IMG/VR virus record: IMGVR_UViG_3300014205_000170
Location: 352,001 to 416,000 of that record
Reading direction: 5' to 3' (one strand)
DNA length: 64,000 nt
DNA from: a virus
Lineage: Duplodnaviria; Caudoviricetes
The position numbers were made by a program, and so were the translations under genes. Below, in pieces: positions 5,450 through 59,103 of the stretch. The notes beneath the pieces were generated by a model. It had not been told where the DNA came from, searched no databases, and saw only the letters and a list, made by a program, of their open reading frames with translations. How positions within the stretch are numbered: the first letter of the stretch is position 1; every line of letters starts with the position of its first letter.

Positions 5450-6925
5450 TTACTCTTCAACTTTTTTAGAAATTCCAGCTAATCTTTTCATTCTTCTAAT
5501 CTCATCACTTTCATAAAGTGTTTGAGTGTTTGAAGAAATCATAACTGCCGGACTTGAAGATTTTAATTTATCAATTGATGTCGTTTTAGTAGATTTTGAA
5601 TCTTTCATTTCGTTAAGGAAATTATTGTAAAGTTTTTTTGCATCTTCGATAGATTCAACTTTATCAAATTCCTCAGCGATTTTAATTTTCTCATCATTTG
5701 TAAGACCACCATTGGTGAAGAGCTTGTTAGCATAAGCTAATTTTGCATTAAAAATCTGCACTTCATTGATTTGTTTTCTAAGGACAATAAAAGATTCTTT
5801 GTACTCTTTTAGAGTTGCAGATAATCCTTGTTTTTCCTTTTTTAAACTTTCGTTTTCCTTTGAGAGCTCGTCGAATTTCGACCCATATTGAGCTTTAATT
5901 TTATCAATACCTTCTTTAAGAGCATTTTGTGACATTGGAGCTTGAGGATTGTGGTGCCCTTTTTGAGCTTTTATATGTCCTCTTCTTCCAGCTTTGTTTT
6001 CAGTAGAGAATGATACACCAAGAACTTCGTCCATGTTAGCATCGTCTTCTTCTGCATCTTCGTCAACAATTTCAAGCTCATTAAATAATTCCATTATAGA
6101 ATCAGAATTAAGTTCATTCATATCGTCTTCCAATTCATAAACAACATCAGTTTCTTCCATGTGACCTTCGTCTTCCATTTCATAAACTACTTCTTCATCA
6201 GTATCATCATCTAATTCAAATTCATCTTCTTGTAAAGCAGGTGCTGGAGCAGGTACCGGAGTTTCATCAGGAATTGCTGTTCCACCAGGAACTTGTGTGT
6301 TAGCATCAGGAGCAATTTCTCCTTCTGGTTCATCTTCAATAATTGAAACTTCGCCTTCACCTTCTTGGTTTCCACCTTCTGCAGAAATAGCATCTATTTT
6401 ACTTAAAATATCATCCAATTTACTGTTCACAGTTTGAATTGTTGCTTCTTCTGTTGCAGGAGCCTCAGCACCCTGAACTGCATCCGGTGTTTCTACTGGA
6501 GCAACTTCTGCATTTGGTTGTGCAGGTTGTACAGCATCATTAGGTTCATTTAAACCTTCAATTTCAAAGATTTCTTCCATATCTTCTTCGTTGTTGTTGT
6601 TTGTAATTTCTTCTGGTGTTTCTTCTGTTTCATCAGAAATTTCACCTTCAATATCATTTGTAATTTCTGGAATTTCTACATCTCCATTAGAAGGTGTATT
6701 TTCACTAGAAATTTTAATTGTTAATTCAGCATTTTGTGGAAGTTCAACATTCAATCCTTCTTTAAGAGATTCTTGTTCATAGTCTTTTAAAGCTTGATTA
6801 GCAACTTCCTTAATTTTTGGAGCTAATTCTTCCTCAAGAATTTTTTTAGCCTTTTCGATAGCAGATTTTTCAATTTCTCTAGCTTCGATTAATGCTTCTT
6901 GTATTGAACTTTTTTTGATACTCAT
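5450..6925 (-). CDS. prohead core/scaffolding protein
   Basis: Very acidic, C-terminal coiled coil (NAKLAYANKLF), many L/M-x-E sites, located between protease and capsid genes. Confidence 0.85.
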   Translation of the reverse strand: MSIKKSSIQEALIEAREIEKSAIEKAKKILEEELAPKIKEVANQALKDYEQESLKEGLNVELPQNAELTIKISSENTPSNGDVEIPEITNDIEGEISDETEETPEEITNNNNEEDMEEIFEIEGLNEPNDAVQPAQPNAEVAPVETPDAVQGAEAPATEEATIQTVNSKLDDILSKIDAISAEGGNQEGEGEVSIIEDEPEGEIAPDANTQVPGGTAIPDETPVPAPAPALQEDEFELDDDTDEEVVYEMEDEGHMEETDVVYELEDDMNELNSDSIMELFNELEIVDEDAEEDDANMDEVLGVSFSTENKAGRRGHIKAQKGHHNPQAPMSQNALKEGIDKIKAQYGSKFDELSKENESLKKEKQGLSATLKEYKESFIVLRKQINEVQIFNAKLAYANKLFTNGGLTNDEKIKIAEEFDKVESIEDAKKLYNNFLNEMKDSKSTKTTSIDKLKSSSPAVMISSNTQTLYESDEIRRMKRLAGISKKVEE

Positions 6926-6996
6926 CTCTGTTTTTATTTAAGGATGCTTTATTTCAACATAAATAGTAGATAAAAAAGCAAATTCCATTTTATTTG

Positions 6997-7665
6997 TTAC
7001 TTTGTCCAAAATTTTTGGTTAGCAACATCTAATAATTGTTTTAATTTGATTGTCTTTGCGCTATTTTCAACCTCATCTGCTCTTAAAGTTTTAAAACTTT
7101 CGTCTGTAATTTTCTTTAAACCAACTTTTCCAGCTTCGAAACCTTCTTTAAACATATATGCGCCTGGAGTGGATGGAGATGAAACAAAATCAAAAGCGAT
7201 TAATTCAAAATCTTCCTGAACAACATCTGCACCGGTTTGGCTTTTTACAGAACCAACACCTCTTGATGAAATACCAAGCATAACTCCGCTTCTTAATAAA
7301 CCTTTTAAAATATTTCCTGATGGAGTGTCAATAATTTCTACTTCTCCGTATAAAGTTTCGCCATCCCACCACATTTTAGTAACTAAGTGAGAAACATTCG
7401 ATAATGAAACAACAGCCGAATCAGGATGGTCACATTCTCCTAATGCTCTTCTTTCTCTAACTAATTCTTGATATTTTTCAACTTCTCTTTTTAAAATATC
7501 ATATGGATATTTTCTTCCATTTCTATTTAAAGTATTAGCTTTTTGTAAAATCCCTTTTAATATTACAGGTAAATTTTTTTCTTCTGCTTCTTTAATTATA
7601 GTCCTTAAATTTTCAGGATTAAAAGCATAGAATTCACTAATGATATATTTACTTTCTTGTGACAT
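6997..7665 (-). CDS. prohead protease, T4 gp21-like
   Basis: NRNGRKYP, ALGECDHP, GISSRGVGS, DFVSSPSTPGA. Confidence 0.95.
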   Translation of the reverse strand: MSQESKYIISEFYAFNPENLRTIIKEAEEKNLPVILKGILQKANTLNRNGRKYPYDILKREVEKYQELVRERRALGECDHPDSAVVSLSNVSHLVTKMWWDGETLYGEVEIIDTPSGNILKGLLRSGVMLGISSRGVGSVKSQTGADVVQEDFELIAFDFVSSPSTPGAYMFKEGFEAGKVGLKKITDESFKTLRADEVENSAKTIKLKQLLDVANQKFWTK

Positions 7666-7680
7666 TATTTCTTTTTTTAG

Positions 7681-7717
7681 TAAATAGCTTTGAAAAAAAT
7701 AAGTTCACACATATTTA
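7681..7717. promoter_or_regulatory. divergent pair of TATTTA (putative late promoter) motifs
   Basis: TAAATA 7681-7686 faces the protease gene; TATTTA 7712-7717 faces the kinase-like gene. Confidence 0.5.
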
Positions 7718-7721
7718 AACT

Positions 7722-8675
7722 ATGATGAAGCATGATTGTAATAATAATTTCAGAAGCATTATTAGAGAAATGTTTGTTGAACAATTACAGTTATTTTCTT
7801 TAAAAAAAACCTTATCTAAATATTACGAGACCAATTCTTATGGTCAAAAAGGTGATAGAACAACTATAACAATACCGAAAATTGAAAATTCAAAACTTAA
7901 TTGGTTATTCTTTCAATTATTAGATATAATTGATGAATTATTAATTAATCATATAGAGAGTGATGATTTTACAAATCCTGAACACTGGGGATTTAAACCA
8001 GATGGTGTTTTGGGGTTATATGATATTGGATTTGGTAATTATTATGCACAATTTAAAAATGACTTAGAAGATATACCAATTGAACTAGGAGAAGATTATA
8101 TATCGCAAATATTAAGAAAATTGAATATAAAATCCGCTGATTTAATTGGCGGAGGAATGAATGGAAGCGCATATGAGATTGGAGATAATAAAATTTTAAA
8201 AATAACTCGCGACCGTTCAGAAGCAGTTAATTGTCAAAAAATAATTGGTAAAAAACTTAAACATTTGGCTGACATTTATACTGTTAAACAATTTAAAATA
8301 GATGGTAGAATAAATTATGTAATTCTATTAGAAAAATTAAGAAATGAAAATAAAATTACTCAATTAGCTAAAGAATTATCAGATGTATTTGATAAACAGA
8401 GAAACAAGCATTTAGATATATCTATCCTTAATGCTATAAAGAAAAAACACCCTATTGTAGCAGATTTTATTCTTGATATGAATCAAAATGGTTATGAAAA
8501 AACTTGGGATAAATGGCGCAATAAACTTGTTGATGAAAAATTAATCACACAATATGATTGGAATGATATAAGTGAAATTTCACAATGGGTAAAAGGTTCA
8601 ATCGAAAATAAAAATGACATTATGGATGAGCCTCCACATTATGTGATTGATTTAATAAAATTTCTAATTTTATAA
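7722..8675 (+). CDS. protein kinase-like protein with reversed lobe order
   Basis: Catalytic loop/DFG-like segment (SDDFTNPEHWG...LYDIGFG) precedes the N-lobe (IGGGMNGSAY, KILKIT, SEA, YVILLEKL). Confidence 0.7.
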   Translation: MMKHDCNNNFRSIIREMFVEQLQLFSLKKTLSKYYETNSYGQKGDRTTITIPKIENSKLNWLFFQLLDIIDELLINHIESDDFTNPEHWGFKPDGVLGLYDIGFGNYYAQFKNDLEDIPIELGEDYISQILRKLNIKSADLIGGGMNGSAYEIGDNKILKITRDRSEAVNCQKIIGKKLKHLADIYTVKQFKIDGRINYVILLEKLRNENKITQLAKELSDVFDKQRNKHLDISILNAIKKKHPIVADFILDMNQNGYEKTWDKWRNKLVDEKLITQYDWNDISEISQWVKGSIENKNDIMDEPPHYVIDLIKFLIL

Positions 8676-8676
8676 A

Positions 8677-9492
8677 TTATTCTGATTTTGTTATATCGTT
8701 TATAGACGTTTCTCCGTTTAATACTTTCTCAGTATCTTTATCTATAATATCTGCAAACTCTATTTCACAAAACGTGCCACAATCCGGTAAAATAGGAGCT
8801 TCATGTCTTCCTTCTTCCGGACCCAGTTCGTCAAGGAATTTATTTTTGATACAACTGCGACCTATTTTTCTTTCCAATTTTGCCATTTTATCAAAATGTT
8901 CAGGAAAATGTTTTCTTACTTGATTTGCATATCCTTTGCCGCCCTTAACACACATAATACAATTATTATTATGAAATCCTAATTTGTACATTGTGGGCAA
9001 TTCAATACCATTATTTAATAAAATACCGGCACATTGCTCTTTGGTTAATTTAGAATCAATTAAAGGAAAAACAGGGTTTGTATGAGGGTATTGTTGAGAG
9101 AATCGAATAGCTCTATTTATCTCCTTTTTTTCAAATTCAAAACCGAATACTTGATTCTCAAAATTTGCTATTTCTTTTTCAACGGCAACTCGCACATCTT
9201 TTTTTAATTCTTTTGTACATCTTGCTCCGCCGGGCCCATTCACATATCTCGTTTTTTCAATAACATCAAATTGGTCTTTGTATTTTGAAGACCTACGACG
9301 TTCTACCGGTAATCCAATCCATTTTTCACAATCAGCTATAAAACGCGCATTATCTTCGTGGGCTGAATCTATTTCAAAATATACTAAAACTACATTGTCT
9401 TTACCATATTTATCTACTGCTAATTTACAAGCTACTGCGCTGGTGATACCACAGCTGAACCAACCTATTATTTTTTTATTTTTAATTTCCAT
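8677..9492 (-). CDS. PAPS-reductase-like PP-loop (adenine nucleotide alpha hydrolase) Cys-rich protein
   Basis: WFSCGITSA PP-loop, ARCTKELK, HNNNCIMCVKGG, DCGTFC. Confidence 0.8.
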   Translation of the reverse strand: MEIKNKKIIGWFSCGITSAVACKLAVDKYGKDNVVLVYFEIDSAHEDNARFIADCEKWIGLPVERRRSSKYKDQFDVIEKTRYVNGPGGARCTKELKKDVRVAVEKEIANFENQVFGFEFEKKEINRAIRFSQQYPHTNPVFPLIDSKLTKEQCAGILLNNGIELPTMYKLGFHNNNCIMCVKGGKGYANQVRKHFPEHFDKMAKLERKIGRSCIKNKFLDELGPEEGRHEAPILPDCGTFCEIEFADIIDKDTEKVLNGETSINDITKSE

Positions 9493-10076
9493 TACTTATT
9501 TTTATGTATGCTAAAATCTAACTTCCCTTTTAATAAATCTGTATTTGCTATTTTTTCAGAGATTTTCATCATTTCATTAAACAATTCATTGTCCTCTTTA
9601 TCTTTTAGAGAATAGTTACAATCTCTATCTAAACAATTGGCGGTATGAAGATTTAACTCTATTGAGGTAAAACTCTTTTTATTATTATAATTTAAATTTT
9701 CAGGAAATTCATGTATATAAATATTATCATAATATAAAGGAAACAGTTTATTATTCTCAAGAATAGATTTTAGATGTATTTTATAAATATCTTTTAGTTC
9801 TTTTGAATAGTGCCTAGAGATGGTTTTATCGAAATTATCGCATATATCACCTCTATCTTTAATGTCAACCCAGAAAGTCACATTGATATATACGGTTTGA
9901 GGTCTGTTCTTATCCTCCGCTGTCCCTAGCCTAAAACAAATGTTAGGGTTTTTAAATTTAGACCCGTCGATTTTTATCTCTCTTCCTGGCCTTTCGTTTT
10001 TCTTTGTATGAGTTGATACTTCATATTCATTCATAATTTTTTTTGGTTCAACAATAAGTGAATTACCTAATTTCAA
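9492..10076 (-). CDS. hypothetical protein
   Basis: 194 aa ORF; its stop overlaps the next start. Confidence 0.7.
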   Translation of the reverse strand: MKLGNSLIVEPKKIMNEYEVSTHTKKNERPGREIKIDGSKFKNPNICFRLGTAEDKNRPQTVYINVTFWVDIKDRGDICDNFDKTISRHYSKELKDIYKIHLKSILENNKLFPLYYDNIYIHEFPENLNYNNKKSFTSIELNLHTANCLDRDCNYSLKDKEDNELFNEMMKISEKIANTDLLKGKLDFSIHKNK

Positions 10077-10183
10077 ATCTAAAGGGTTTTTATCTGAAAG
10101 TCAATATCTTCCTAGGTCAAAATAAATCTGGGGGTTTTACTAAAAATCTATTAAAATAAATTATGATATCACTTTATTTGTGT

Positions 10184-10191
10184 TATATTTG
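10184..10191 (+). promoter_or_regulatory. Bacteroidota -7 element upstream of dnaE
   Basis: TATATTTG 23 nt before the ATG. Confidence 0.6.
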
Positions 10192-10214
10192 TAACACAAA
10201 AAACACAAACACTT

Positions 10215-13200
10215 ATGGCTAGATGTACCTGTAAAAACGAAGGATGTATGCATAAAAAACCTATGGTTCATTTACACTTACACACCGGCTATTCTCTTTT
10301 GGATGGAGCAGCACATATTGATGATTATATCGAATTAGCAAAAGAATATAATCATCCAGCAATTACTATTTTGGACCACGGACATGCTTCTGGAACTTTT
10401 GAATTTTTTACAAAATGTAAAAATGCAGGAATAAAACCAGTTCTTGGAATGGAAGCTTATGTAAATGATAAAATCTCAGAAATAAATGATGATAAAAGTT
10501 TACAAGGAATTGAAAGAAAAGATACACATCAATCGATTATTATTAAAAATCAAGAAGGTTTTGTTAATTTAAATAAACTGATTTACAAATCTTTCACAGA
10601 AGGATATTATTATCGTGGTCGAATTACAACAGAATGGCTTATAGATAATAAAAGTGGTTTATTACTTACTACTAGTTGTATGGCAAGTAAATTGGCCAGA
10701 CTTGTAAATGAGGGTAAAGAAAAAGAAGCAGAGGAAAGACTACAACTTTTAATGCGAGAATTTGGTGATGACCTTGTGGCTGAATTACAATTTAATGAAA
10801 TTCCAGAACAAAAAAAATATAATCATTTTATTTTAAAAATGATTAAAAAATATTCTTTAATGCCGATTCTTACCGGTGATGTTCATTACGCTTACCCAGA
10901 AGACAATCGATTACAAGATGTTTTAATCTCTATTAATCAACATACAACTGTTGATGACCCAACAGCATTTAAATTAAATGCTAGGCATCTTTATTATGCG
11001 AATAGAGATGATTTTTATAAAATGAATAAAGACTTTGGTTTTAATTATCCAGAACATTTTTTACAAGAATGTTTAGATAATACATTAAAAGTGGCAGAAA
11101 AATGTAATTTTGAATTTGAGACTGGTGTTGAAAAATTTCCTCAATACGAACCAACAAAAGATGTCGTAGATTATTTTAAAGTAGACACAACAAAAGGAAT
11201 TATCACAAAATTGGCACATGCAAAATTAAGTCAAAAATTAAAAATATATCAAAAAAATGGTCTTGTAAAAATTGATGATGAAGTAATACAAAAATATAAA
11301 GATAGACTTGATTATGAATTGAAAGTAATTGATGACAAAAAGATGTTAGATTACTTTATGGTTATTTGGGAATTAATCAGATTTTGTAAAGAAAATGATA
11401 TTGCGGTTGGACCAGGTAGAGGCTCTGCAGCAGGTTCTTTATTATCGTGGTGTTTAGATATTACTAAAATAGATTCATTAAGATTTAATCTATTTTTTGA
11501 AAGATTTTTAAATCCAGAAAGAAAAGGTTTTCCTGATATTGATATTGATTTTGAAGCTGGAACTGATGAAAAAACCTTACAGTTTTTATATGATAAATAC
11601 GGAAAAGAGCGCGTTGTACCAGTAATAACTTTTGGAACATTCAATGAAAAAGGTTGTTTAAAAGATGTAGTTCGTGCATTAGGTGGGGATTCTGGTTTTG
11701 AATCAGATGTTTTTGCAGTTACAAAAGAAATGCCTACAAAACCAACTTGGGATATTTCTCTTGAGGAGTGGTTTGAAACTTGGCCAAATAGTCCAGAATG
11801 TTCTGAGCGAGTGAAACAATGGTTAACAAATCCTGACAATGAAGAAATTTTAAGATTAACTTTAAAATTACAAGGTCAGATTCGAAACGTAGGAAAACAT
11901 GCCGCTGGAATAGTTATTACCCCTGGACCTATTTGGGAAAGTATGCCAGTGAATATTTCTAAAGGACAAATCGTATCAGGATTTCAAGAATCAGGAAGTG
12001 GAAAGAATCTTTCAGACCTTGGAATTTTAAAGTTAGATAGATTGAAATTAGAAACATTAAATGTAATCAAGGACGCTATTAAACTTATTAAAGAAACAAG
12101 AGGAATAGATATTCAAGAACAAGTTGATTACGTTAATTTAGAAGACCCTAATTTGTTTTTAGAATTAATGTTAGGAAATAACCAAGGAGTATTTCAATTT
12201 GAGTCAGAAGGAATGAATGCTTTAATTCGAGGCATTAAAGTAGAAACTTTTAATGAATTGGTTGCTGCAAATGCTTTATATCGTCCAGGTCCAATGGGAA
12301 TTGGTGCACATGAAGAATTTATTAGAAATAAATTTAATCCTAACTTAAGAACATATGCTCACGATTCTTTAGCACCTCTTTTGGCTGACACAAATGGCGT
12401 TTTGATTTTTCAAGAACAACTAATGTTTATTGCAAACAATTTAGCAGGAATGACATTGGGAGAAGGTGATAACTTAAGAAAATACATGGATTCTGCTGGA
12501 AAAATAATAGCAAAAAAGCTGCGTGGAGAACAATTATCAGAGGATGAATTAAAAAACAAAAATTACAAAGGTTACGTTGAATTGTGGACCAAATTTATCG
12601 AAGGAGCTAAGAAACAAGGACTATCAGAAAAAGAAGTAGCTGCTATTGAAGATTGGTTAATTAAATATTTAGGATATTCATTTAATTTAAGTCATGCTTT
12701 AAGCTATAGTTACGTTGCAATGCAAACTTTATTTTTAAAGCATTATTATCCAACTGAGTTTTATACAGCGTTATTAAATCATCCTAAAAACAACAGTGAT
12801 AAAGACAAGGAAAAACAATGGTTACAAGCAGCACTTTTATCCGCTATGTCAAAAGGAATCGAAATTGTTCCTCCGGCAAGACAATCAAAATGGGCATGGA
12901 CCTTTATTGAAGATAAAAGAATTGCTATGGGATTTTCTGGTATTAATGGAATGGGAGAGATTGCATATCATGAATTAAAATCTAAGAAAATTTCAAACTT
13001 AAACAAAGACGAATTTTTTGCAATACCATTTAAGAAATTTAATAAAGGTAGTTTTGAAGCATGTTTAAAGGCGGGATTATTTGATGATTGGTCAGATTCT
13101 AGAGAAGAAATTTTAGAATGGAGAAAAGCTAAATTGAAAAACGTCATGCAGTTAGACATTTTTGGTAACCATGGTGTAAATACAGTAACTGTTTATAGAA

Positions 13201-14168: not shown

Positions 14169-14205
14169 CGGTTTAAAATAATTAGACAAAAAAAATATAA
14201 ATTCT

Positions 14206-14891: not shown

Positions 14892-14934
14892 CATCCACAA
14901 TTACGAGATTTTTGTGGATATTATACAACATTTA
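14878..14934. repeat. 23-bp inverted repeat (2 mismatches, 11-nt spacer)
   Basis: TAAATGTTGGATAACATCCACAA (14878-14900) and TTGTGGATATTATACAACATTTA (14912-14934). Confidence 0.8.
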
Positions 14935-14966
14935 TAAAAAAAAAATGAATTCCCTATTTATTAGGG

Positions 14967-44138: not shown

Positions 44139-45785
44139 GTGAAAAAGAGGAAAATTACTAAAAAAGAGTTAGAAAATCTTATCTCAGAAGGTGTAAAAAA
44201 ATTGTTTTTTGAAAAGAAAGCAGAACCGGTTACTAAACCAGCACCAACAAAAACCCCTGAGCGTACTAAAAAACCTAACCCTATTAAAATACCTAAACCA
44301 GGTACTTTCCCAAAGCCAAATCCAAAAGCTAAAGCTAAAAATGAAGCTACTGAAATAAAAGCTGAAAATCTTTTAAAGGAGTGGAATAAAATTTTACGAT
44401 TAGAAGATGAAAAGAAAAGGATGAAACGTCTTTTTCAAGAAGCTCCTCTAGATATAGATGGTGGAGAACATCAACCCCACAATTCAATCAAACAAGGAAT
44501 TGAAGGTGAAAAACAAACGCCTTTTAGTGCTGTTGATTTCTTCTCAAGAAGAAGATTAGACCAAAGTACAATAGAAAAAATTGGTAGCGAAGAATTCAAT
44601 GCAATCGTAAGACACATTGGTGAAGAAGGTGTTGGGAATATGAATACTATGGAAATTATGAATGCTTTACAAATGATTGTATCGTATGAAATGAGACATA
44701 GAGGTAATCTTGAAAATTTAGCAAAAACAATCGTTCAAAGAAAATTTGGGCTTTCCGATGAAATCATGGATATGATTGATGCTAAATTAAAAAATCCTGG
44801 TGAAATTGATGCTCCGGATGATGACACTCCTCAAGAAGAGGTTGAACAACAATTTACAGAAGAAGAATTAGAAGTAATCAAGAAAAACGTTGACAAACGA
44901 GTTATTAATAACACATTGATGATGGGTGCTGGTTATAGAGCACATCAAATTTTTGATGATTTAAAAAATTCTTTAGACGGAATTGATGCAAGACTTTATC
45001 CGCTTTACACTAGAATGATGCCTAATGTTGAGTTGTTCCTATGGAAGCTTCCAGTTGAAGAAATGTATGGTCAAAGACAAATGTGGGGTAAATCAGAATT
45101 GAAATGTGATGGAGATTCCTGTAAAGCAGAGGCATCAGCTATTATTTTCCCTATTCTTTTACATGAAGTTGCTAAAGCAGCAGTAGAAATTTTATTACTT
45201 CAGCATCTTGCAGATATACAAGAAAAACATGGAGAAGCTGTTGCAAAACAAGTTGTTAAACAAGCAGATTCTTATATGGATGAGCATTGGTTAAAATTAA
45301 TAGGACCAAGATTGTGGAAATATTTACATGATGCTTTATTGTTTGTTGTTCAAGAAGAGGGTGAAGATTATACCATTATTTCATATGTATTAAACAGAAT
45401 GGCTTCAATGGAACCAGAAGAATTCATGGAACTAATGGATAATACAATTCATGATGGTCCACTAGCTATTGAAAAAATTAAAGTTCTACTTTCGACAATA
45501 AGAAACGATATTGACGCATTTGAAACACAAGAAGGAGAAACACCATCTCCAGAAAATTTGGATGCGAATAGAGAAGATATGTCAGATGAGATTGCAAATC
45601 TATTACGTGCTAATCAAGATGAATTATTAACTCGCACTCCGGAAGAAGAAAGACCAGTTGCAAATCCCAAAAAGAACTTAGCCGATATGGATATAGATGA
45701 ATTGAATAATATTCTTCAACATGCATTAGAGGGTGAAAAATATGAATTGGCTTCTAAGGTTAGAGATGAAATAAGAAAGAGATAA
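44139..45785 (+). CDS. putative virion protein with Pro-rich linker, HExxK motif and C-terminal UVR domain
   Basis: FPILLHEVAKAAVE; ALEGEKYELASKVRDEI; TATTTA at 44115. Confidence 0.7.
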   Translation: MKKRKITKKELENLISEGVKKLFFEKKAEPVTKPAPTKTPERTKKPNPIKIPKPGTFPKPNPKAKAKNEATEIKAENLLKEWNKILRLEDEKKRMKRLFQEAPLDIDGGEHQPHNSIKQGIEGEKQTPFSAVDFFSRRRLDQSTIEKIGSEEFNAIVRHIGEEGVGNMNTMEIMNALQMIVSYEMRHRGNLENLAKTIVQRKFGLSDEIMDMIDAKLKNPGEIDAPDDDTPQEEVEQQFTEEELEVIKKNVDKRVINNTLMMGAGYRAHQIFDDLKNSLDGIDARLYPLYTRMMPNVELFLWKLPVEEMYGQRQMWGKSELKCDGDSCKAEASAIIFPILLHEVAKAAVEILLLQHLADIQEKHGEAVAKQVVKQADSYMDEHWLKLIGPRLWKYLHDALLFVVQEEGEDYTIISYVLNRMASMEPEEFMELMDNTIHDGPLAIEKIKVLLSTIRNDIDAFETQEGETPSPENLDANREDMSDEIANLLRANQDELLTRTPEEERPVANPKKNLADMDIDELNNILQHALEGEKYELASKVRDEIRKR

Positions 45786-49214: not shown

Positions 49215-49240
49215 GTTTAACTTTGTAATAATAGAATAAT

Positions 49241-49876: not shown

Positions 49877-49913
49877 CTAATTACAAGAAAAAAAAACGGT
49901 CATATTTATTGGT

Positions 49914-50927: not shown

Positions 50928-50934
50928 TGTAAGA

Positions 50935-51615
50935 TTATTTATTTCCTTTATTTGAAATGTTTTTAATAGGCTTTATTGTTCCTTTTGGTTTAAGCGTAGG
51001 TTTTGTTACGGCATCAGTTTGCTCAGGTTCTTGAACTTGTTGTTCCGGTTCTTTAAATAAAGCTTTAATGTTCGGTTTTGGTTTTTGTTGCTCTTTTGCT
51101 TTGTTAGCCAAATCTATTTGAAATTTCTTTATCTCTGGAAAATTCGCTGCTACCTCTACGTTAACCATTCCTTTATCTGCTGCATTATAATTTTTTGGAG
51201 GCACACTAAAGAAATTACCAGTAAACCACATTGATTTTATATTAGAGATTTTAAACATTCTCCATTCATCTTCAATTTCTTGACTTCTAAGACCAGTTTT
51301 CATAGCAGCAGACTCTGACTGTCCCATTCTGTGTACTGCTCTTAAAACTTGATTTCCAGCCTTTGACGTGCCAATTGCTACTGGATATATAATTCTATAC
51401 TTTGAAACTGGCATTTTATACTTTTCATTATTACTTTGAAATAAAATACCAATTTCTCTACCTTCTTTAATGGCTTGAATCATTAAATCTTTATTGAAGG
51501 GTATTCTTTGATTACTATTTCTGAAAGCAGCCTCTTTTTCGGCATTACTTACCTCTAACAGAACAATTCCTGCTAATTTTTGTAATCTTTCTTTATATCC
51601 TTCGCTAAGCAACAT
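50935..51615 (-). CDS. WYL-domain protein with N-terminal LAGI tag
   Basis: QAIKEGREIGILF...RIIYPVAIG...VLRA...WRMFKISNI. Confidence 0.75.
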   Translation of the reverse strand: MLLSEGYKERLQKLAGIVLLEVSNAEKEAAFRNSNQRIPFNKDLMIQAIKEGREIGILFQSNNEKYKMPVSKYRIIYPVAIGTSKAGNQVLRAVHRMGQSESAAMKTGLRSQEIEDEWRMFKISNIKSMWFTGNFFSVPPKNYNAADKGMVNVEVAANFPEIKKFQIDLANKAKEQQKPKPNIKALFKEPEQQVQEPEQTDAVTKPTLKPKGTIKPIKNISNKGNK

Positions 51616-51619
51616 TTAA

Positions 51620-51943: not shown

Positions 51944-51994
51944 AAAATAATTTTCATATAAATATGTTGTTTTTATCATTTATACCCTTTATTT

Positions 51995-52948
51995 TTGAAT
52001 ATATCATGGATAAGAATAAGTTACGAACAGTTAAAAACTGTAGACTCAAACGCGATTCACATAAGTTTCAGTGAAATTAATCAATATAAAGATTGTGGTC
52101 ACAAACATCTTATTGAGAAGTATTTGAAATTGGCTATATCACCAACATCAATACATTTAATTTTTGGTAATTCTATACATTCAGCTATAGAAGTTGGAAT
52201 TAGAGATTCTCTAAATTTAGAACAAAGACTTTCTCATTTTACAAACACATTCACTAAAGAAATGATGGATAAAATGATGGGAACTAAAGAATATAATACA
52301 GAATTAGATAATTTTACAAAACAAGGTCAAAATATTTTAACGCTTTTATCTACTGAAAAGATTTTAGAAAAATATGACCTAATAGGTGTTGAAATGGCTT
52401 TATATGAAAAATTATTTTCAAATTTTCATTTTAAAGGATTTATAGATTTAATATTAAAAGATAAAAAAACCGGTAGAATATTAATCATTGATTGGAAAAC
52501 ATCCGGAGAATTGTGGGATGTAGAAAAAAAGAAAAAAGATAAAGTATTCATGGCACAAATGCGATTGTATAAATATTTTTATGCAAGAAAGTTTAATGTA
52601 CCTATTAATGATATAGATTGTAAATATGTTGTTCTAAACAGATTACAATTAAAAAAATGCCCGGAATTAGGTTATGGAAAAATACAAACAGTAGAAATTT
52701 TCTCTACTGATGAAGATATATTAGAAGCAGTTACTCTTGTTGCTGAAACATTACGAAACATACATTTAAACAAAAAATTTGAAAAAGCCAAATTGATTGG
52801 AAAGAAAAATTCATGTTTCTTTTGTCCTTATAAAGCAAATCCTACTTTATGTAATGATAATCCAAATCAATATAAATATATGTTGGATGAACATAGAGAA
52901 AAACGATTACTAATTGAAAGAGGAGAAGAAAAACAAACTGTTTTATAA
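51995..52948 (+). CDS. PD-(D/E)XK RecB/Cas4-like exonuclease
   Basis: ISFS...C, FGNSIH, GFIDL, IIDWKTS, QMRLY, CFFCPY...C. Confidence 0.9.
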   Translation: MNISWIRISYEQLKTVDSNAIHISFSEINQYKDCGHKHLIEKYLKLAISPTSIHLIFGNSIHSAIEVGIRDSLNLEQRLSHFTNTFTKEMMDKMMGTKEYNTELDNFTKQGQNILTLLSTEKILEKYDLIGVEMALYEKLFSNFHFKGFIDLILKDKKTGRILIIDWKTSGELWDVEKKKKDKVFMAQMRLYKYFYARKFNVPINDIDCKYVVLNRLQLKKCPELGYGKIQTVEIFSTDEDILEAVTLVAETLRNIHLNKKFEKAKLIGKKNSCFFCPYKANPTLCNDNPNQYKYMLDEHREKRLLIERGEEKQTVL

Positions 52949-52952
52949 AATT

Positions 52953-53996
52953 ATGGAAAAAGAAAATACAAAAATTGCATTAATAGCTGGTATCACTGGG
53001 CAAGATGGCTCATATCTTGCAGAACTTTTATTGGAAAAAAATTATAAAGTTCATGGTATCATTAGAAGGTCAAGTAGTTTCAATACAGGACGTATTGACC
53101 ATATTTTCGAACATCCAAATTTGAAATTACATTTTGGTGATGTAACTGACCCGTTAAGTGTTGCTGGTTTAGTGTCATCAATAAAACCTGATGAAGTTTA
53201 TAATCTTGCAGCACAATCACACGTAAAAGTTTCTTTTGAGCAACCATATTACACCGGTCATGTTGATGCTTTAGGAACATTAACTTTTATTGATGCTATA
53301 CGCACTCATTGTCCTACTGCAAAATTTTATCAAGCATCAACTTCAGAATTGTATGGAGGAATGGGATATAATATGCCTAAAAAAGGTTATAATGAAGAAT
53401 CTTTGTTTCACCCACGAAGTCCATATGGTGTAGCAAAAATTTATGGTTATTGGATAGTTAAAAATTACAGAGAAGCCTATAATTTATTTGCATGCAATGG
53501 TATTTTGTTCAATCATGAAGGTCCAAGAAGGGGTTTGACTTTTGTTACAAAAAAAGTGACTCATACATTTGCTAAAATGTATTCTACCAACGAAGGAGTT
53601 TTAACTATAGGAAATTTAGACGCTCAAAGAGATTGGGGTTCTGCAAAAGATTATGTAGAAGGTATGTGGCGCATGTTACAACAAGAGAAACCACAAGATT
53701 ATGTTTTGGCAACCGGCGAATGTCATTCAGTACGTGATTTTATTGAAGAAAGTGCAAAATATTTAAATTGGGACATTGAATGGAAAGGCGAAGGTATCAA
53801 TGAAAAAGGATACGATAAAAATACTGGAAGACTTTTAGTTGAAATTGATGAAAAATATTTTAGACCATCTGAGGTTGAATTATTATTGGGAGACTCAACT
53901 AAAGCACGAAAAGAATTAGGATGGGAACCAAAAACCTCATTTAAGGATTTGGTAAAATTAATGATGGATACAGATTTAGAAGATTTAAAGAAATAA
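52953..53996 (+). CDS. gmd: GDP-mannose 4,6-dehydratase
   Basis: GITGQDGSYLAE, NLAAQSHVKVSF, QASTSELYG, SPYGVAK, GILFNHE, RDWG. Confidence 0.97.
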   Translation: MEKENTKIALIAGITGQDGSYLAELLLEKNYKVHGIIRRSSSFNTGRIDHIFEHPNLKLHFGDVTDPLSVAGLVSSIKPDEVYNLAAQSHVKVSFEQPYYTGHVDALGTLTFIDAIRTHCPTAKFYQASTSELYGGMGYNMPKKGYNEESLFHPRSPYGVAKIYGYWIVKNYREAYNLFACNGILFNHEGPRRGLTFVTKKVTHTFAKMYSTNEGVLTIGNLDAQRDWGSAKDYVEGMWRMLQQEKPQDYVLATGECHSVRDFIEESAKYLNWDIEWKGEGINEKGYDKNTGRLLVEIDEKYFRPSEVELLLGDSTKARKELGWEPKTSFKDLVKLMMDTDLEDLKK

Positions 53997-54866
53997 ATTT
54001 TCTTTAAATAATTTTTGAACGACTTTTCTTACTTCTGCAATATTTCTATGTTTTTTGTATTCCGGACTTTTCCAATCTCTTGATTGATAATGAGAATCCA
54101 AGTCATGATGTATAACATCCTGCACAACTTCTTTGTGCATTTTTGATAAACTTTTTGGAAATATTCCAATTGATGTGTGTCCAAAATTTCCTTGGTCATT
54201 ACTTTGAGCAAAATCATTAATTTTTACACCATCAAATCCACGTTCTTTAGCCATGGCAAAAACCTTATGTGAATGATACTGAACATCTGTAAGGTCGCCC
54301 TCTATTGTTTCCCCATCAGTCATATCGTAAATTTTCAAATCAACATTTGGTACAAGAATAAAAAGACGACCTTTAAATCTAAAATCAGCCGGCATAACCT
54401 CTCCATTGCTTACTTTTAATTTCCAACCATGGTCTCCATATTTATCAGGAGTAGATGGTTTATAACCTAGTGTGTTTGAAAGAAAATTATTTACATAATC
54501 AAATTTTTTTCTTTGTATATCAAGATAATTACTATCAGGTTTGTCTTCTTCTTTCTCTAAAGCAGTAAAAGGATTTTGTATTACTGTATACGATTGAGCT
54601 CTTCCTCCTTTCCAAGTGATGTCATCAAATTCAATACCCATATTTTTCTGAAGAGCTATTAATTCTTTGTTTTCATTTGGTCGGAGAAAAGATTCAGTAC
54701 TTACAAACCATTCACTTGGAGCAACCGGAATATAAGTTTGTGCAATAGAAGAATCAGTAGTTGTCCATATAAGGCCATCATACCCACCACCTTTTAAATC
54801 TTTCTCTTCGAAAGGTTCTCCGGTAGCATGAAATAATTCTGTCCCTTTTTTAATAATTAAATCCAC
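53985..54866 (-). CDS. ADP-ribosyltransferase-like protein
   Basis: KGTELFHAT...F, IWTTTDSSIAQTY, GFDG motifs typical of phage ART folds. Confidence 0.55.
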   Translation of the reverse strand: MDLIIKKGTELFHATGEPFEEKDLKGGGYDGLIWTTTDSSIAQTYIPVAPSEWFVSTESFLRPNENKELIALQKNMGIEFDDITWKGGRAQSYTVIQNPFTALEKEEDKPDSNYLDIQRKKFDYVNNFLSNTLGYKPSTPDKYGDHGWKLKVSNGEVMPADFRFKGRLFILVPNVDLKIYDMTDGETIEGDLTDVQYHSHKVFAMAKERGFDGVKINDFAQSNDQGNFGHTSIGIFPKSLSKMHKEVVQDVIHHDLDSHYQSRDWKSPEYKKHRNIAEVRKVVQKLFKENLFL

Positions 54867-54967
54867 TTATATTTTATTTATGATAAATACTCTAAAATTT
54901 TGAGGTTTATACCTATTTTAAAGTTGCTATTTACATTGAATGTAGTCTGTATATATTTGAATAGTAA

Positions 54968-55258
54968 ATGTATATAAGAAAGCAAATATTGGAGAACCAA
55001 AAAAAGTTCAGAAAAGAAATAGTTGCTGCTCTTAAACTCGAATTTCGAGAAATGAAAAAGGAGCTTGACCAAATACAAACGGCAGATGATATCATCAAAG
55101 AAGAAAAAATAAAACTCTTAAAAAGAGTCAATAAAATTAAAATTGTTCAAGAATTAGAAAAATTCTTTATATCTGAGAAAAACCTATATCCCAAATATTA
55201 TGCTTGGTGGGATGAAATAAATAATCAAGTTATTAAACATAAATACATAGACAAATAA
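54968..55258 (+). CDS. hypothetical protein
   Basis: 96 aa ORF; TATATTTG at 54952. Confidence 0.65.
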   Translation: MYIRKQILENQKKFRKEIVAALKLEFREMKKELDQIQTADDIIKEEKIKLLKRVNKIKIVQELEKFFISEKNLYPKYYAWWDEINNQVIKHKYIDK

Positions 55259-55662
55259 TGAAGCCTGAAAGACCTAGTACCATATGTGTTCTTATTGATT
55301 TACAATACCACTCTTCAATAAATGCTTTTGAAGAATGGTATGGTGACCAAATATCTTATCAAGAACTTGAACAAAGTAGTTATATCGAATTTAAAGAAAT
55401 AATTTTCAAAGATATTAGTAGAAGCATAAAATTCAGAAAATATGGTAGGATGGGAAATATACTCACTATCAAAGCTGATATGTTAAAATTTGAAATTGAG
55501 CGATTTAAAAAAATGCTAGAAAAGAATAATATTAAGCTAGTGCATGGCTGGATTGTTTCAAATGTAACTATCATAACTGATAAAATGCCGGAAAAAGGTA
55601 CTGTATCAGATGATGATGAAGATAGTGAAAGTAATGATTTTGCTGATTTTGAAGATATTTAA
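55258..55662 (+). CDS. hypothetical protein with acidic tail
   Basis: 134 aa; TAATG coupling. Confidence 0.7.
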   Translation: MKPERPSTICVLIDLQYHSSINAFEEWYGDQISYQELEQSSYIEFKEIIFKDISRSIKFRKYGRMGNILTIKADMLKFEIERFKKMLEKNNIKLVHGWIVSNVTIITDKMPEKGTVSDDDEDSESNDFADFEDI

Positions 55663-55685
55663 TATATATGAAAGGATAATTAACC

Positions 55686-56435
55686 ATGAGTAAGAATATT
55701 AACGAAGAAAGATTAAAAAAATTTAGAGATATGGGTATTCCAGCGCCTATGAGCCCTGTTGACCCATCTATGCTTAAAGGCCCAGTAAGAAATCTGGAAT
55801 TTGCCGCTAAACTTGAAGCTATTAAAAGAGGTGTGGTAAAAGAAGAATTAAGTACTTTTATTGAAAAAGAAACAGGAAATAAAGGTTTTATACCCATAGA
55901 AACTCCTACAAAAAAGAAACCTCAAAATCAGATAACTGAAACTGCTGAAATAAAAAAACCTTCTGTATCTGGACCAAGTTTCGATTTATATGAAAAAGCT
56001 TTATATGGTGAGAGTCCAAGTGTTTCTTTTGATAAAAATACAAATGCTAGGACATATTCTCACAATATTACTCCATCAGCTGATGATACCGGAACTGATT
56101 TTTTGGCAAATATTAAAGCTCAATTAGCTGCAAAGGCTATGAAAGCGAATCAATCAACTCCAAATAATTCAAAAATAATACAAGAAAACAAAACTAATAT
56201 CCCGGCAGGACATACTCTTGTTAATGAAAATGATTTTAAAGAGGCCGTTACCATGATTGCTTCTGATGTTTGTAAAGTTTTAATTAAAAAATTCATGAAT
56301 GAGTTTTTGACTTCTAAACCAGATTTGATTAAAGAAAATGAAAAGGTTAAGAAAGCAGAAATTATACAAGAGAATATTATAAAAATGGATGGTAATTATT
56401 TTAAAATTACACCAGTTACAGTTAAAAAGAAATGA
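55686..56435 (+). CDS. hypothetical protein, putative head-associated
   Basis: 249 aa, multiple I/V-x-E sites, TATTTA at 55656. Confidence 0.7.
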   Translation: MSKNINEERLKKFRDMGIPAPMSPVDPSMLKGPVRNLEFAAKLEAIKRGVVKEELSTFIEKETGNKGFIPIETPTKKKPQNQITETAEIKKPSVSGPSFDLYEKALYGESPSVSFDKNTNARTYSHNITPSADDTGTDFLANIKAQLAAKAMKANQSTPNNSKIIQENKTNIPAGHTLVNENDFKEAVTMIASDVCKVLIKKFMNEFLTSKPDLIKENEKVKKAEIIQENIIKMDGNYFKITPVTVKKK

Positions 56436-56842
56436 AAAAGTTAATAGACCATAATGTTAAAGCACAAATAACAAGAGAAACTCCTGAGATATGTTTGGAG
56501 GTAAAATACCAGGATGATTTTACTGATGACCATTATGTTTTAATAAGCGAAAGTAATACTTCCAATTCAAATCTAATTAAATTCAACATTTCTAAAAATG
56601 GTCAAAACATTACTTCTGTTGAAATGAAGGAAAGAAATGTAAATGAATTTTTAAATGAGTTTCTAAACAACACTAAAGATGATGATTTTAATAAAGAATT
56701 TAAATCTAAAATATTTGAAGTCTCATCTAAACAAATAAAAGACTTTTTTGAATTTTACGACAATTCTCTAGTTCGTAAAGGTCTTACTTTAGAAGGCGAA
56801 ATCTTTCGTATGAAAAAGATGGCCGGCATAATAAAAAATTGA
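56432..56842 (+). CDS. hypothetical protein with C-terminal RMKKMAGI tag
   Basis: Ends LEGEIFRMKKMAGIIKN. Confidence 0.7.
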   Translation: MKKLIDHNVKAQITRETPEICLEVKYQDDFTDDHYVLISESNTSNSNLIKFNISKNGQNITSVEMKERNVNEFLNEFLNNTKDDDFNKEFKSKIFEVSSKQIKDFFEFYDNSLVRKGLTLEGEIFRMKKMAGIIKN

Positions 56843-56886
56843 TTGTTTTCATTTCCTAAGCCTATTTATCATTAAAATTACTTTTA

Positions 56887-57801
56887 ATGATAAAATTACC
56901 TGTAAAAAAAGGCGATAAAGGAGAATCTGCTGCGGAAGTTCAAAAATTGCTTTCCTTAAATGGTTATGATTTGATTATTGATGGAGATTTTGGCTCAAGA
57001 AGTGAATTGGCTGTAATTGACTTTCAATCACATCATAATTTAAAAGCTGATGGTGTTGTTGGAGAAGTTACTTATAATGCTTTAAAAGCAAAGGACGCTT
57101 CTGTGGTAACTCCAAGTATAGCTCCGGCTACAACTGTGGACTATGGAACTTTAGTAGTTAATAAAACTGTTAGACAACCAGATTCACAGTATATCAAAAC
57201 AGAAACAAACAAAACTCAAATATTCTTGCATTTTACTGCCGGTGGTCCAAATGCAAAAAATGTAATTGGTGGATGGAATGCAGATGAGACTCGTGTTTCT
57301 ACTGCTTATGTTATAGATAGGAATACTGGTGAAGTTTTTGAATGTTTTGACCCTAAATTTTGGAGTTTCCATCTTGGTATAAACAATACTAATGGTAGAT
57401 TAGACAAAACTTCTGTAGGACTTGAAATTTGTTCTTATGGCCCACTGAAAAAAGTAGAAAATAAATATTATGCTTGGCCAAAAGAATGGAAAACGGAAAT
57501 TAAAGAAGCAAGTGTTTATAAGTTAGATAAAGCATTTAGAGGGTATAATTATTTTGAATCATTTACTGATGCGCAACTTTCAAATGTTGAAAAATTATTG
57601 CATATTTTAATTAAAAAATACAACATTAAAGTACAACCTTCATTTGATGATAATTGGTTTGAATATAACCAAAACGTAATTGACAAAACTTTACCTGGAA
57701 TTTGGACACATACAACTGTAAGACGCGATAAGTCTGATGTTTATCCGGATAAACGAATTTTGGAAATGCTTAATAGAATTTCTAAAGAAGTGAATAAATG
57801 A
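56887..57801 (+). CDS. endolysin: peptidoglycan-binding domain plus N-acetylmuramoyl-L-alanine amidase
   Basis: DGDFG...FQ...ADGVVG PG-binding domain; LHFTAG, SVGLEIC, WTH...KSD amidase_2 motifs. Confidence 0.9.
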   Translation: MIKLPVKKGDKGESAAEVQKLLSLNGYDLIIDGDFGSRSELAVIDFQSHHNLKADGVVGEVTYNALKAKDASVVTPSIAPATTVDYGTLVVNKTVRQPDSQYIKTETNKTQIFLHFTAGGPNAKNVIGGWNADETRVSTAYVIDRNTGEVFECFDPKFWSFHLGINNTNGRLDKTSVGLEICSYGPLKKVENKYYAWPKEWKTEIKEASVYKLDKAFRGYNYFESFTDAQLSNVEKLLHILIKKYNIKVQPSFDDNWFEYNQNVIDKTLPGIWTHTTVRRDKSDVYPDKRILEMLNRISKEVNK

Positions 57802-58010
57802 GCAAATCAAAAAAAATATTAAATGAGGAAATGGCAAAATCAGAATTAAAGGATTTTGTTAAAGATATCATTAATACAGAATTGAACAAAAAGATAAAAG
57901 ACGGTAAACTTACCGATGAAGAAAAAGTAAAAGATATTATTAAAGATTTATTAAAAAGACACTACAAAACGTTGTGGACTAAAGCTAATTATTTTACAGA
58001 AGATTTATAA
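57798..58010 (+). CDS. small hypothetical protein
   Basis: 70 aa, ILNEE/KSELKDFVKDII, overlaps with both neighbours. Confidence 0.7.
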   Translation: MSKSKKILNEEMAKSELKDFVKDIINTELNKKIKDGKLTDEEKVKDIIKDLLKRHYKTLWTKANYFTEDL

Positions 58011-58207
58011 TGACAAGAAAAGATTTAATGAAATTGATAGAAGACGAAGTAACTAAAGTCGCACAGGAACCTATACGAGAACCTATCAGAGAGTTACCTC
58101 AAATTCCTATGTCCAAACTTAATCCAGTTTTTAATCCTGCATTAAAAAACGAGGATGAAATCGATGAATATTTATTTAAAGCAGGAATGAAAGAAAAAAC
58201 AAATTAA
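58010..58207 (+). CDS. small hypothetical protein
   Basis: 65 aa, MTRKDLMKLIEDEV. Confidence 0.7.
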   Translation: MTRKDLMKLIEDEVTKVAQEPIREPIRELPQIPMSKLNPVFNPALKNEDEIDEYLFKAGMKEKTN

Positions 58208-58208
58208 A

Positions 58209-58781
58209 ATGGAAAATCAAAACGAAGCACCTAAAGTTACAGCAGCAGAAGTAGCAGATTGGGAAGAGAATTTTAAAAAAACAGTAAGTCCACTTGTGAA
58301 ATTTGACAAACAAGATAATGGATATTCTATGAAGTTTTATAATGGTGAAAGTGGCATTGATGCCTACTGGTCAGGAACCATTATGTTAAAAGCTGATAAT
58401 TATATAAAATGGAGTTTTTCTGTTTTAAATGGTGTGTTTATGGATGCAAAATTTAATATTGAAGAAAGTAACAAAGGCATTCCTGCAAATCTATATGAAT
58501 TTTATAAAAGTTGGGAAGCAGAAGTTGCTTCTACAATTACAGAACCAGAAGATAAAGGCGACCAAGCACCGCCTCCAATAGCACAACCTGGCGGAACATT
58601 AGCGGGTCCAGAATCAAACAATATACCAGATTCTACAATTGCTACACCTGGCACAGGACAGCTTTCTGAGGGAAGTTTAATTACTAGAACAGGAGTTCCT
58701 TCTGTAAGTAGAAAGAATTTAAAAAGAGAATCAGTGATAATGGATAGCATGGAACGCATGCGAAGATTAGCAGGACTTTAA
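58209..58781 (+). CDS. hypothetical protein with C-terminal RMRRLAGL tag
   Basis: 190 aa ORF. Confidence 0.75.
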   Translation: MENQNEAPKVTAAEVADWEENFKKTVSPLVKFDKQDNGYSMKFYNGESGIDAYWSGTIMLKADNYIKWSFSVLNGVFMDAKFNIEESNKGIPANLYEFYKSWEAEVASTITEPEDKGDQAPPPIAQPGGTLAGPESNNIPDSTIATPGTGQLSEGSLITRTGVPSVSRKNLKRESVIMDSMERMRRLAGL

Positions 58782-58791
58782 AAAAAATATC

Positions 58792-59103
58792 ATGAATTTA
58801 TCTGAATCATTTAAAAAAAGACTTAAAGAACTTAGTGGAATAAAAAATGTAATGAATGAAATTATTCTTTTTCCAGATGATGTTTTATTTCCGGCTACTT
58901 TTACAATATTGACTCAACAAGCTGCTGATAAAGCCAAAGCTAAAAATATTGTTCCTTCATATAAACATAATGGTTATCATTTTACCGTTAAAAACAGAGA
59001 AGAGTTAAATCAATTAATGGATTTATATAAAGAAGGTAATAAATATAATAATGAAGATATTATAGGTACAGATGTTAATGATATAAAATTCGGACAATTA
59101 TAA
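58792..59103 (+). CDS. hypothetical protein with N-terminal RLKELSGI tag
   Basis: Starts MNLSESFKKRLKELSGI. Confidence 0.75.
   Translation: MNLSESFKKRLKELSGIKNVMNEIILFPDDVLFPATFTILTQQAADKAKAKNIVPSYKHNGYHFTVKNREELNQLMDLYKEGNKYNNEDIIGTDVNDIKFGQL

Follow-up and report, generated by a model that had tools for sequence, protein, structure and literature searches.

Why should the tail of a phage head scaffold recur at the ends of proteins that otherwise look unrelated? The question is raised by a 64,000-nucleotide stretch of virus DNA (the window), bases 352,001 to 416,000 of a single 518,809-bp virus record (IMGVR_UViG_3300014205_000170; 30% G+C), whose source is a T4-related phage of 519 kb. On its minus strand, the window carries a T4-type trio of head genes, encoding an S77 protease, an acidic protein of 491 amino acids (aa) and a gp23-family major capsid protein (MCP), and the acidic protein, a gp22-like scaffold, bears near its C-terminus a short peptide, here called the tag. 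A first-pass annotation of the window had proposed that this peptide serves as an address label for loading proteins into the prohead. Our analysis of the sequences supports the tag being a portable terminal module under protein-level selection, common to the scaffold and to unrelated proteins.

The scaffold tail and its terminal copies

The head genes are arranged as follows.

3857-5416, minus strand: major capsid protein, gp23 family (Pfam Gp23, 4e-76)
5450-6925, minus strand: gp22-like head scaffold protein, 491 aa, isoelectric point (pI) 4.2, between the S77 protease and the gp23-family MCP
6997-7665, minus strand: prohead protease, T4 gp21 family (Pfam Peptidase_S77, 1.2e-31)

The open reading frame (ORF) at 5450-6925 has no Pfam or PHROG profile match, and its homology to gp22 therefore rests on position and on an N-terminal motif. 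It is assigned as the scaffold because it occupies the gp22 position in a gp21-gp22-gp23 gene order, is an acidic coiled-coil protein, has a gp22-like N-terminus and contains 18 [LI]-x-E sites. The N-terminus, like that of the orthologue in Flavobacterium phage immuto, resembles that of T4 gp22 (T4 sequence from NC_000866). The site density of 3.67 per 100 aa, which exceeds both the median (1.32) and the 95th percentile (2.85) of the proteome, is as expected for a substrate chopped by a gp21-type protease.

Across the genome, 871 non-overlapping ORFs were called (164,865 residues). The strict pattern R-[ML]-x-x-[LM]-[AS]-G-[ILV] occurs 10 times in these genes, against an expectation of 0.08 from 100 residue shuffles, and all 10 copies are found no more than 30 residues from a protein end, a zone that holds 31% of all residues. 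This excess and this terminal placement are far beyond chance, and the terminal enrichment over shuffled controls that the first-pass annotation anticipated is thus confirmed. A small tag profile, built from the copies and run without filters on the called ORFs, identified 12 member proteins scoring 19-30 bits, with the next-best match in the whole genome at 8.0 bits. These are the scaffold, eight proteins with N-terminal copies and three further proteins with C-terminal copies, so that eleven proteins besides the scaffold carry the tag at their extreme start or end. Five members lie in the window, and a six-frame scan of the window with the motif returned exactly the five sites that had been annotated, all of them terminal. 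The claim that the motif sits on otherwise unrelated proteins is borne out and extends to 12 members genome-wide, rather than five. The tagged proteins other than the scaffold are referred to here as cargo.

5471-5518, minus strand: scaffold C-terminal module, with L-Y-E at aa 470-472, the core R-M-K-R-L-A-G-I at aa 478-485 and then six residues
50935-51615, minus strand: tagged cargo 1, a WYL-like domain protein with a basic tail, 226 aa, pI 9.8
51553-51615, minus strand: N-terminal tag of cargo 1 (aa 1-17) and its L-L-E site (aa 19-21)
56432-56842, plus strand: tagged cargo 2, 136 aa, with a C-terminal core at 56807-56830 (27.5 bits)
58209-58781, plus strand: tagged cargo 3, 190 aa, with a C-terminal core at 58755-58778 that ends at the stop codon
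58792-59103, plus strand: tagged cargo 4, 103 aa, with an N-terminal tag at 58792-58842 (30.5 bits)
Genome positions 160945, 179342, 294795, 298380, 442709, 451862 and 473891: tagged members outside the window (profile and pattern search)

The consensus is M-x-L-[ST]-E-x-[FY]-K-x-R-L-x-x-L-[AS]-G-[ILV] for N-terminal copies and (L/I)-x-E-S-x(3-4)-R-M-x-x-L-A-G-[IL], with 0-6 further residues behind it, for C-terminal copies. The hydrophobic positions fall at i, i+4, i+7 and i+10 with Lys or Arg between them, which points to a basic amphipathic helix closed by Gly and a hydrophobic residue. Two C-termini had been described as ending in the motif itself. The motif is indeed present at both, and it is followed by S-K-K-V-E-E before the stop in the scaffold and by three residues in the 56432 product. 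Codons within the tag vary synonymously (Leu TTA/CTT/TTG; Ala GCT/GCA/GCC; Gly GGA/GGT/GGC; Ser AGT/TCT), and the mean pairwise nucleotide identity of the core in this genome is 57%. A DNA-level repeat was rejected on these grounds; judged by codon usage, conservation lies in the peptide and not in the DNA.

The tag behaves as a module separable from the proteins that bear it. With the tag masked, nine of the 12 tagged proteins match no other gene of this genome, and among the tagged proteins themselves, only the paralogous pair 451862/473891 match each other. Both members of this pair are related by BLASTP to an untagged protein in the window (28% identity; E-values 1e-17 to 5e-19), and the alignment begins past the end of their tag.

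62701-64000, plus strand: untagged paralogue, 537 aa, continuing past the window end

A tagged protein of 983 aa likewise has a paralogue with a different leader. Elsewhere in the genome, at 123682-124662 and 510411-511220 (both minus strand), paralogues of tagged proteins carry a leader ending h-h-T-E, the two leaders reading R-Q-I-L-I-T-E and R-R-L-F-L-T-E. Paralogues thus seem to swap address labels.

Within cargo families, the tag is retained over long distances. The N-terminal tag is present in 117 of 120 homologues of cargo 1, down to 46% identity, and the C-terminal tag in 43 of 45 homologues of cargo 3, down to 37% identity; the orthologue of cargo 2 in a relative (G005) closes with the same C-terminal module. 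Cargo 4 is an ORFan, with no homologue but itself among 5.8 billion proteins, yet it has the top-scoring tag.

The replication and metabolic enzymes of the window, in contrast, are without the tag, nor is the motif common at internal positions. Tagless proteins include the DNA polymerase, UvsX, an exonuclease, DnaB, both ribonucleotide reductase subunits, an RNase H-like protein, a PD-(D/E)XK nuclease, a GDP-mannose dehydratase, an endolysin and an SNF2 helicase. The first-pass annotation had named an equal frequency of the motif in such enzymes or at internal sites as grounds for refutation, and the window enzymes do not bear this out. The only other match, internal and outside the window, is in an SbcC/gp46-like protein (genome position 217408), lies 56 aa from the end and fits a loose pattern only; we treat it as probable chance.

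A partial copy, RMKRL, had also been claimed for a further gene of the window.

44139-45785, plus strand: ORF with an RMKRL look-alike, 548 aa, a non-member (8.0 bits, internal)

This claim does not hold. The look-alike is internal (residues 88-98) and scores 8.0 bits, against 19-30 bits for members, so that a degenerate tag was ruled out. Orthologues read R-R-M-L-N-E-A-P and Y-R-R-M-I-S-E-A-P at the same site; since the element conserved among them is [ML]-x-x-E-A-P, the stretch is not a tag copy. The protein has a Lys/Pro-rich first 100 aa followed by [ML]-x-x-E-A-P (L-N-E/A-P and I-S-E/A-P in orthologues), and this N-terminal region is possibly a long propeptide that includes a protease site.

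Conservation in related phages and putative flanking protease sites

The IMG/VR database was searched with the MCP, which yielded 63 loci at 36-90% identity; the ORF directly upstream of the MCP was taken for the scaffold tail. The motif ends the scaffold in 38 of the 43 distinct tails of these relatives, and in 35 of those 38 it is preceded by [LIV]-x-E-[SNG]. Three cultured phages also bear it on their scaffolds (Flavobacterium phage immuto, Microcystis phage Mel-JY01 and, as Rm378p142, Rhodothermus phage RM378), and the scaffold of the 484-kb uncultured phage LR756508 has it with a G-to-D change. The motif was not found in T4 gp22 or in the scaffold of one cyanophage (Kyanoviridae). As the element both sits at the scaffold C-terminus and is conserved there across relatives and cultured phages, the tail is an old functional part in a deep branch of T4-related phages, mostly with Bacteroidota-type hosts.

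Two observations concern the scaffolds of the cultured phages. In immuto, the protein immuto35A_203 (L072 2083-3324; MW353176.1 125582-126823), annotated as a "DNA polymerase phi-like protein," is the head scaffold, given its position, gp22-like N-terminus and tag-bearing C-terminus. In Mel-JY01, a ribosomal protein S21 gene (L073 603-830; PP395634.1) lies between the prohead protease and scaffold genes, an arrangement described for bS21-encoding phages (PMC9723584).

Reuse of the tag on other proteins is more restricted than the scaffold tail. In five related phages (222-389 kb), the profile gave 30 matches (E < 0.1), every one terminal, and in immuto two proteins, immuto35A_42 and _187, have the tag at the N-terminus. 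Matches numbered 0-1 in each of four genomes that are more distant or served as controls (RM378, LR756508, LR756511 and one cyanophage; 130-595 kb), which indicates that the profile is specific and that reuse is confined to the clade.

One clade (G006; MCP identity 49%) has the scaffold tail R-M-K-D-L-M-N-Y together with a 232-aa protein that starts R-M-K-E-L-I-N-Y. This variant pattern occurs at four places in about 2 Mb of relatives' loci, namely on three scaffolds and on the 232-aa protein. Co-variation beyond this clade was rejected, as scaffold and cargo disagree at core position 2 in G002 and G003. The contigs of G006 (L113-L117) and of a further group, G007 (L118-L122), also encode many small proteins with leaders of the type I-[IR]-L-T-E-S-[QE]-F-K-x-L-I-E. 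Because the first half of these leaders resembles the N-terminal tag form L-S-E-S-F-K-K-R-L, they and the tag may share an origin.

The tag is frequently accompanied by a putative site for the head protease. As the protease belongs to the S77 family, the MCP propeptide carries such sites and the scaffold is rich in them, we infer that it cuts after (L/I)-x-E. L-x-E sites are conserved in the N-terminal propeptide of the MCP, and the last one lines up with the L-T-E/A cut site of T4 gp23. Among 36 non-redundant N-terminal tags from this genome and its relatives, 21 have [LI]xE within 10 residues downstream (background 13.4%; binomial p = 3e-10, a value that overstates independence, as many of the pooled tags are orthologues). 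In 15 of these, the site falls at the exact offset G-h-[LI]-x-E (peak at +3). At C-terminal tags, the site is upstream, that is, again on the cargo side; most pooled C-terminal tags are scaffold orthologues, whose site count is not independent. In the WYL-like family of cargo 1, [IL]-x-E is retained after the tag while a spacer of 0-4 residues varies, which fits selection on the site itself. Moreover, 30 of the 36 N-terminal tags begin M-x-L-S-E, so that the whole scaffold module, site and helix, has seemingly been copied.

Most copies in the window had been said to adjoin L-x-E. A canonical site is present at three of the five, namely L-Y-E in the scaffold, L-S-E before and L-L-E after the tag of the WYL-like protein, and L-S-E before the tag of 58792; the remaining two have T-L-E (56432) and I-M-D (58209), and their cut sites are uncertain. 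The upstream site of the 58209 family follows I-[IM]-x-[DE], with I-x-E in distant members and I-M-D in this phage.

The protease itself has a C-terminal motif (6997-7095, minus strand) conserved in relatives (L009-L065) as [YF]-x-K-L-x-x-L-[SA]-[NG]-x-[DN]-F-W-K, with K-L-N-K-L-A-G-N in two of them. This looks like a related docking helix, and the protease may share the docking site of the tag as its third user.

A probable prohead-targeting label and its alternatives

On balance, we favor the reading that the tag is a prohead-targeting label, which would copy the C-terminal docking helix of the scaffold and be clipped by the S77 protease. The gp22-like scaffold would end in a basic amphipathic, Gly-capped helix (hydrophobic-x-x-R-[ML]-x-x-L-A-G-[IL]) that holds a partner inside the assembling head. 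This partner would most likely be the inner face or the propeptide of the gp23-type coat protein, which makes the MCP a candidate receptor; alternatively, it could be the scaffold core, the protease or the portal. Eleven other proteins, bearing the same helix at the extreme N- or C-terminus on a flexible linker, would be co-assembled into the prohead. The gp21-family (S77) protease would then cut at (L/I)-x-E on the cargo side, and at the same type of site before the scaffold tail, which would leave the cargo free inside the head and the scaffold detached. In the simplest account, the scaffold, the cargo and perhaps the protease use one prohead docking site, and the tether is afterwards cut by the protease. 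That the tag binds a head component, that the cargo is packaged and cleaved and that it has a later role are all steps that we infer from the patterns described above.

Several observations weigh against this reading, besides the orthology among the pooled tags. No [LI]xE lies within 10 residues of 15 of the 36 N-terminal tags, and of this genome's four C-terminal copies, two (with T-L-E and I-M-D) are non-canonical. Reuse is not universal either, as Mel-JY01 and RM378 have the motif on no protein but the scaffold. Co-variation of scaffold and cargo is a single case (G006), and the same contig also has N-termini of the L-S-G-I type. The tagged genes are dispersed among non-structural genes: a GDP-mannose 4,6-dehydratase gene (52914-53996, plus strand; Pfam 1e-135) and a PG_binding_1 plus Amidase_2 endolysin gene (56887-57801, plus strand) are located among them, and the tagged genes are therefore not clustered with the head genes. 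Finally, the tagged genes have no definable late-specific promoter in common. Of the original proposal that the scaffold helix is a portable terminal label, the portability, the terminal position, the conservation on the scaffold and the cargo-side sites stand, while the 44139 copy and a canonical L-x-E at two of the sites do not.

A wider claim is possible, though we would not quite commit to it. Here, the tag would be a natural two-way viral cargo-loading peptide, copied from a coat-docking helix together with a release site, with the head protease carrying a third variant, and conservation of the system would reach from 519-kb megaphages, with a dozen cargoes, down to a 130-kb thermophilic phage in which only the scaffold bears the peptide.

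Among the alternatives, the one that survives best, if still unlikely, is that the helix docks its carriers to a hub other than the shell, for example, still within the prohead, the protease, the portal or the scaffold core. The tag would then be a signal for protease recruitment or for co-polymerization with the core, and not a coat-binding label. The related helix conserved at the protease C-terminus (K-L-x-x-L-[SA]-[NG]-x-x-F-W-K) fits such a hub, although in most relatives it is without the Gly-hydrophobic end. The T4 proteins that bear a capsid-targeting sequence (CTS) are placed in the scaffolding core and not in the shell (PMC3012670). The N-terminus of T4 gp22 also resembles the published T4 CTS, which suggests that mimicry between tag and scaffold is a general theme. 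Nothing separates this version from the coat-binding one, as both predict the same packaging outcome.

It is improbable that the tag docks a partner outside head assembly, such as a chaperonin, a host hub or a proteolytic adaptor, which the scaffold merely shares. Short terminal linear motifs of phage proteins do often bind hubs, as with clamp and SSB tails, immuto encodes GroES and GroEL, and the tagged genes lie outside the head gene cluster. The T4 gp23 N-terminus is also reported to direct proteins to GroEL (cited in PMC10052503). Against such a partner, the scaffold is the one universally conserved carrier, the flanking sites fit the expected specificity of the head protease and lie on the cargo side in both orientations, and replication and metabolic enzymes are tagless.

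Still less probable is a generic amphipathic membrane-targeting helix, similar to those of MinD and FtsA, that would bring its carriers to the inner membrane as the site of T4-type prohead assembly. Proheads of T4 do form on the membrane, and the tag is basic and amphipathic, works in position at either terminus and has a flexible tether. However, membrane-targeting helices are loosely conserved, whereas L-A-G-[IL] is near-invariant, and its Gly invariant, across MCP identities from 30% to 90%, which fits a specific protein contact better; the adjoining protease sites would also go unexplained. Lastly, jumbo phages do shuffle modules, but a recombination relic, a shuffled exon-like module or a DNA or RNA signal without common function is barely credible, given the 57% core nucleotide identity, the synonymous codon changes at all conserved residues (for Ser, even AGT and TCT), the retention of the tag within the cargo 1 and cargo 3 families and its always terminal position.

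Should the tag load the head as favored here, it would allow the proteins that are packaged, and probably injected, to be read from genomes by a sequence rule, of use for a large group of uncultured Bacteroidota-type jumbo phages. It would further identify the functional end of the scaffold of these phages, unite three known ideas, the T4 CTS, the coat-binding tail of scaffolds and the targeting peptide of encapsulins, within a single natural system and supply a label of 8-17 residues, usable at either protein end, for loading large T4-type capsids. If the wider two-way reading is true, the scaffold, the protease and the cargo are three users of one docking site, and the system is a viral counterpart of encapsulin cargo-loading peptides and a natural precedent for engineered P22 scaffold fusions. 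As three cultured phages have the scaffold motif, and immuto also two tagged proteins, the idea is bench-testable now.

Known targeting systems, tagged proteins and a probable promoter element

How does the tag compare with known ways of filling a capsid? In T4, a CTS on the internal proteins IPI-III and Alt is reportedly removed by gp21, as Mullaney and Black are said to have described in 1996. This phage has the corresponding parts, as a gp21-family protease, a gp22-like scaffold and a gp23-like MCP are encoded together, one short terminal peptide is shared by 12 otherwise unrelated proteins and (L/I)-x-E occurs at the junction of tag and cargo. The likeness extends to the resemblance of the tag to a scaffold terminus, as the T4 gp22 N-terminus looks like the published CTS. 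However, the tag differs from the M-K-T-Y-Q-E-F-I-A-E type and copies the C-terminal helix of the scaffold, not its N-terminus. Whereas the T4 CTS is N-terminal only, the tag is found at either end, with four C-terminal and eight N-terminal copies, and the cargo here includes proteins of 800-980 aa (up to 983 aa). Packaging was shown in the T4 system, while in this phage it is predicted from sequence. By its sequence and position, the tag is not a member of the T4 CTS family, which has been reviewed (PMC3012670).

A second comparison is with P22, in which the C-terminal coat-binding helix-turn-helix of the scaffolding protein has been engineered to load cargo into virus-like particles (PMC8939255). 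In both cases a small element stands at the scaffold C-terminus, basic and helical in P22 and predicted to be so here, and as fusion to the P22 element loads a foreign protein into the capsid, cargo loading by a scaffold-tail fusion is what this phage appears to do naturally. P22 differs in that it has no protease, its scaffold exits intact and its element is not naturally reused on other phage proteins; the element has no sequence similarity to the tag. The tag modelled on two cargo proteins is predicted to be one short basic amphipathic helix ending in a Gly cap and a hydrophobic residue, with no second helix.

The maturation protease of HK97 reportedly has a C-terminal capsid-targeting tail, an observation ascribed to Duda et al. 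in 2013. There too, a terminal peptide takes a non-shell protein into an HK97-fold prohead, and the protease of the clade described here has a tag-related C-terminal helix. In HK97, however, only a single protein has the signal, and a separate scaffold protein is absent.

Encapsulins likewise combine an HK97-fold shell with a short terminal peptide on diverse cargo, the cargo-loading or targeting peptide (PMC8939255, PMC8229669), which binds the shell interior. That peptide is not removed, is not shared with a scaffold and belongs to a cellular compartment, whereas the tag has a removal site attached and a different motif; it is neither of the G-S-L type nor, as its site suggests, permanently bound. 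In phiKZ-like jumbo phages such as SPN3US, head and ejection proteins have N-terminal propeptides (PMC10052503, PMC5694885). The head proteins of these phages lose terminal propeptides to a T4-type prohead protease, and a targeting role has been proposed. The SPN3US-type propeptides, documented by mass spectrometry, are mostly 111-254 aa long, are N-terminal, have a different cut motif and are without a shared short motif. A copy of a scaffold C-terminus that can stand at either end, with its own putative release site, on a dozen proteins, thus differs from the T4 CTS, P22 fusions and encapsulin peptides. In a full-text literature search, we found no paper describing the motif or a scaffold-derived phage cargo tag, although coverage was incomplete and the result is not proof of novelty.

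To describe the cargo, AlphaFold2 was run on single chains of two families, with an alignment of 51 sequences for the WYL-like family. In cargo 1, the tag helix spans residues 5-14, and the linker at residues 18-22, which has a predicted local distance difference test score (pLDDT) below 50, coincides with the L-L-E site; a confident domain follows at residues 33-176 (pLDDT above 90), and then a disordered Lys/Pro-rich tail. In cargo 3, a domain at residues 10-111 is joined by a disordered linker (112-170) to the tag helix at 180-187. The tag is thus modelled in both families as a detached terminal helix on a low-confidence linker.

The first-pass annotation had labelled cargo 1 a WYL protein. 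Its top Foldseek matches are indeed WYL proteins, PafBC (4.5e-3), CapW, BrxR and DriD, but none reaches E ≤ 1e-3 and there is no Pfam match at E below 0.01, so the label is plausible as a matter of predicted fold. A basic tail (the protein has a pI of 9.8) next to a WYL-like domain of nucleic-acid-binding type would fit a head protein that lies inside the capsid in association with DNA. The domain of cargo 3 has no fold match in Foldseek. For cargo functions, Pfam and PHROGs returned nothing or only families of unknown function, and searches of the PDB with the sequences of the three largest cargoes returned no match; for the 983-aa cargo, the ESM Atlas gave only weak leads to viral repeat proteins (DUF4116, PcfJ, LRV).

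The heptanucleotide CTATTTA is probably a phage promoter element. It is under-represented in the genome, with 113 copies on both strands against about 256 expected, and occurs 6-64 nt upstream of 39 genes, including those for the scaffold, the protease, four tagged proteins and the DnaB helicase. A late promoter that times the tagged genes was rejected, as the element also precedes the DnaB helicase gene. A further copy lies 25 nt upstream of ORF 44139.

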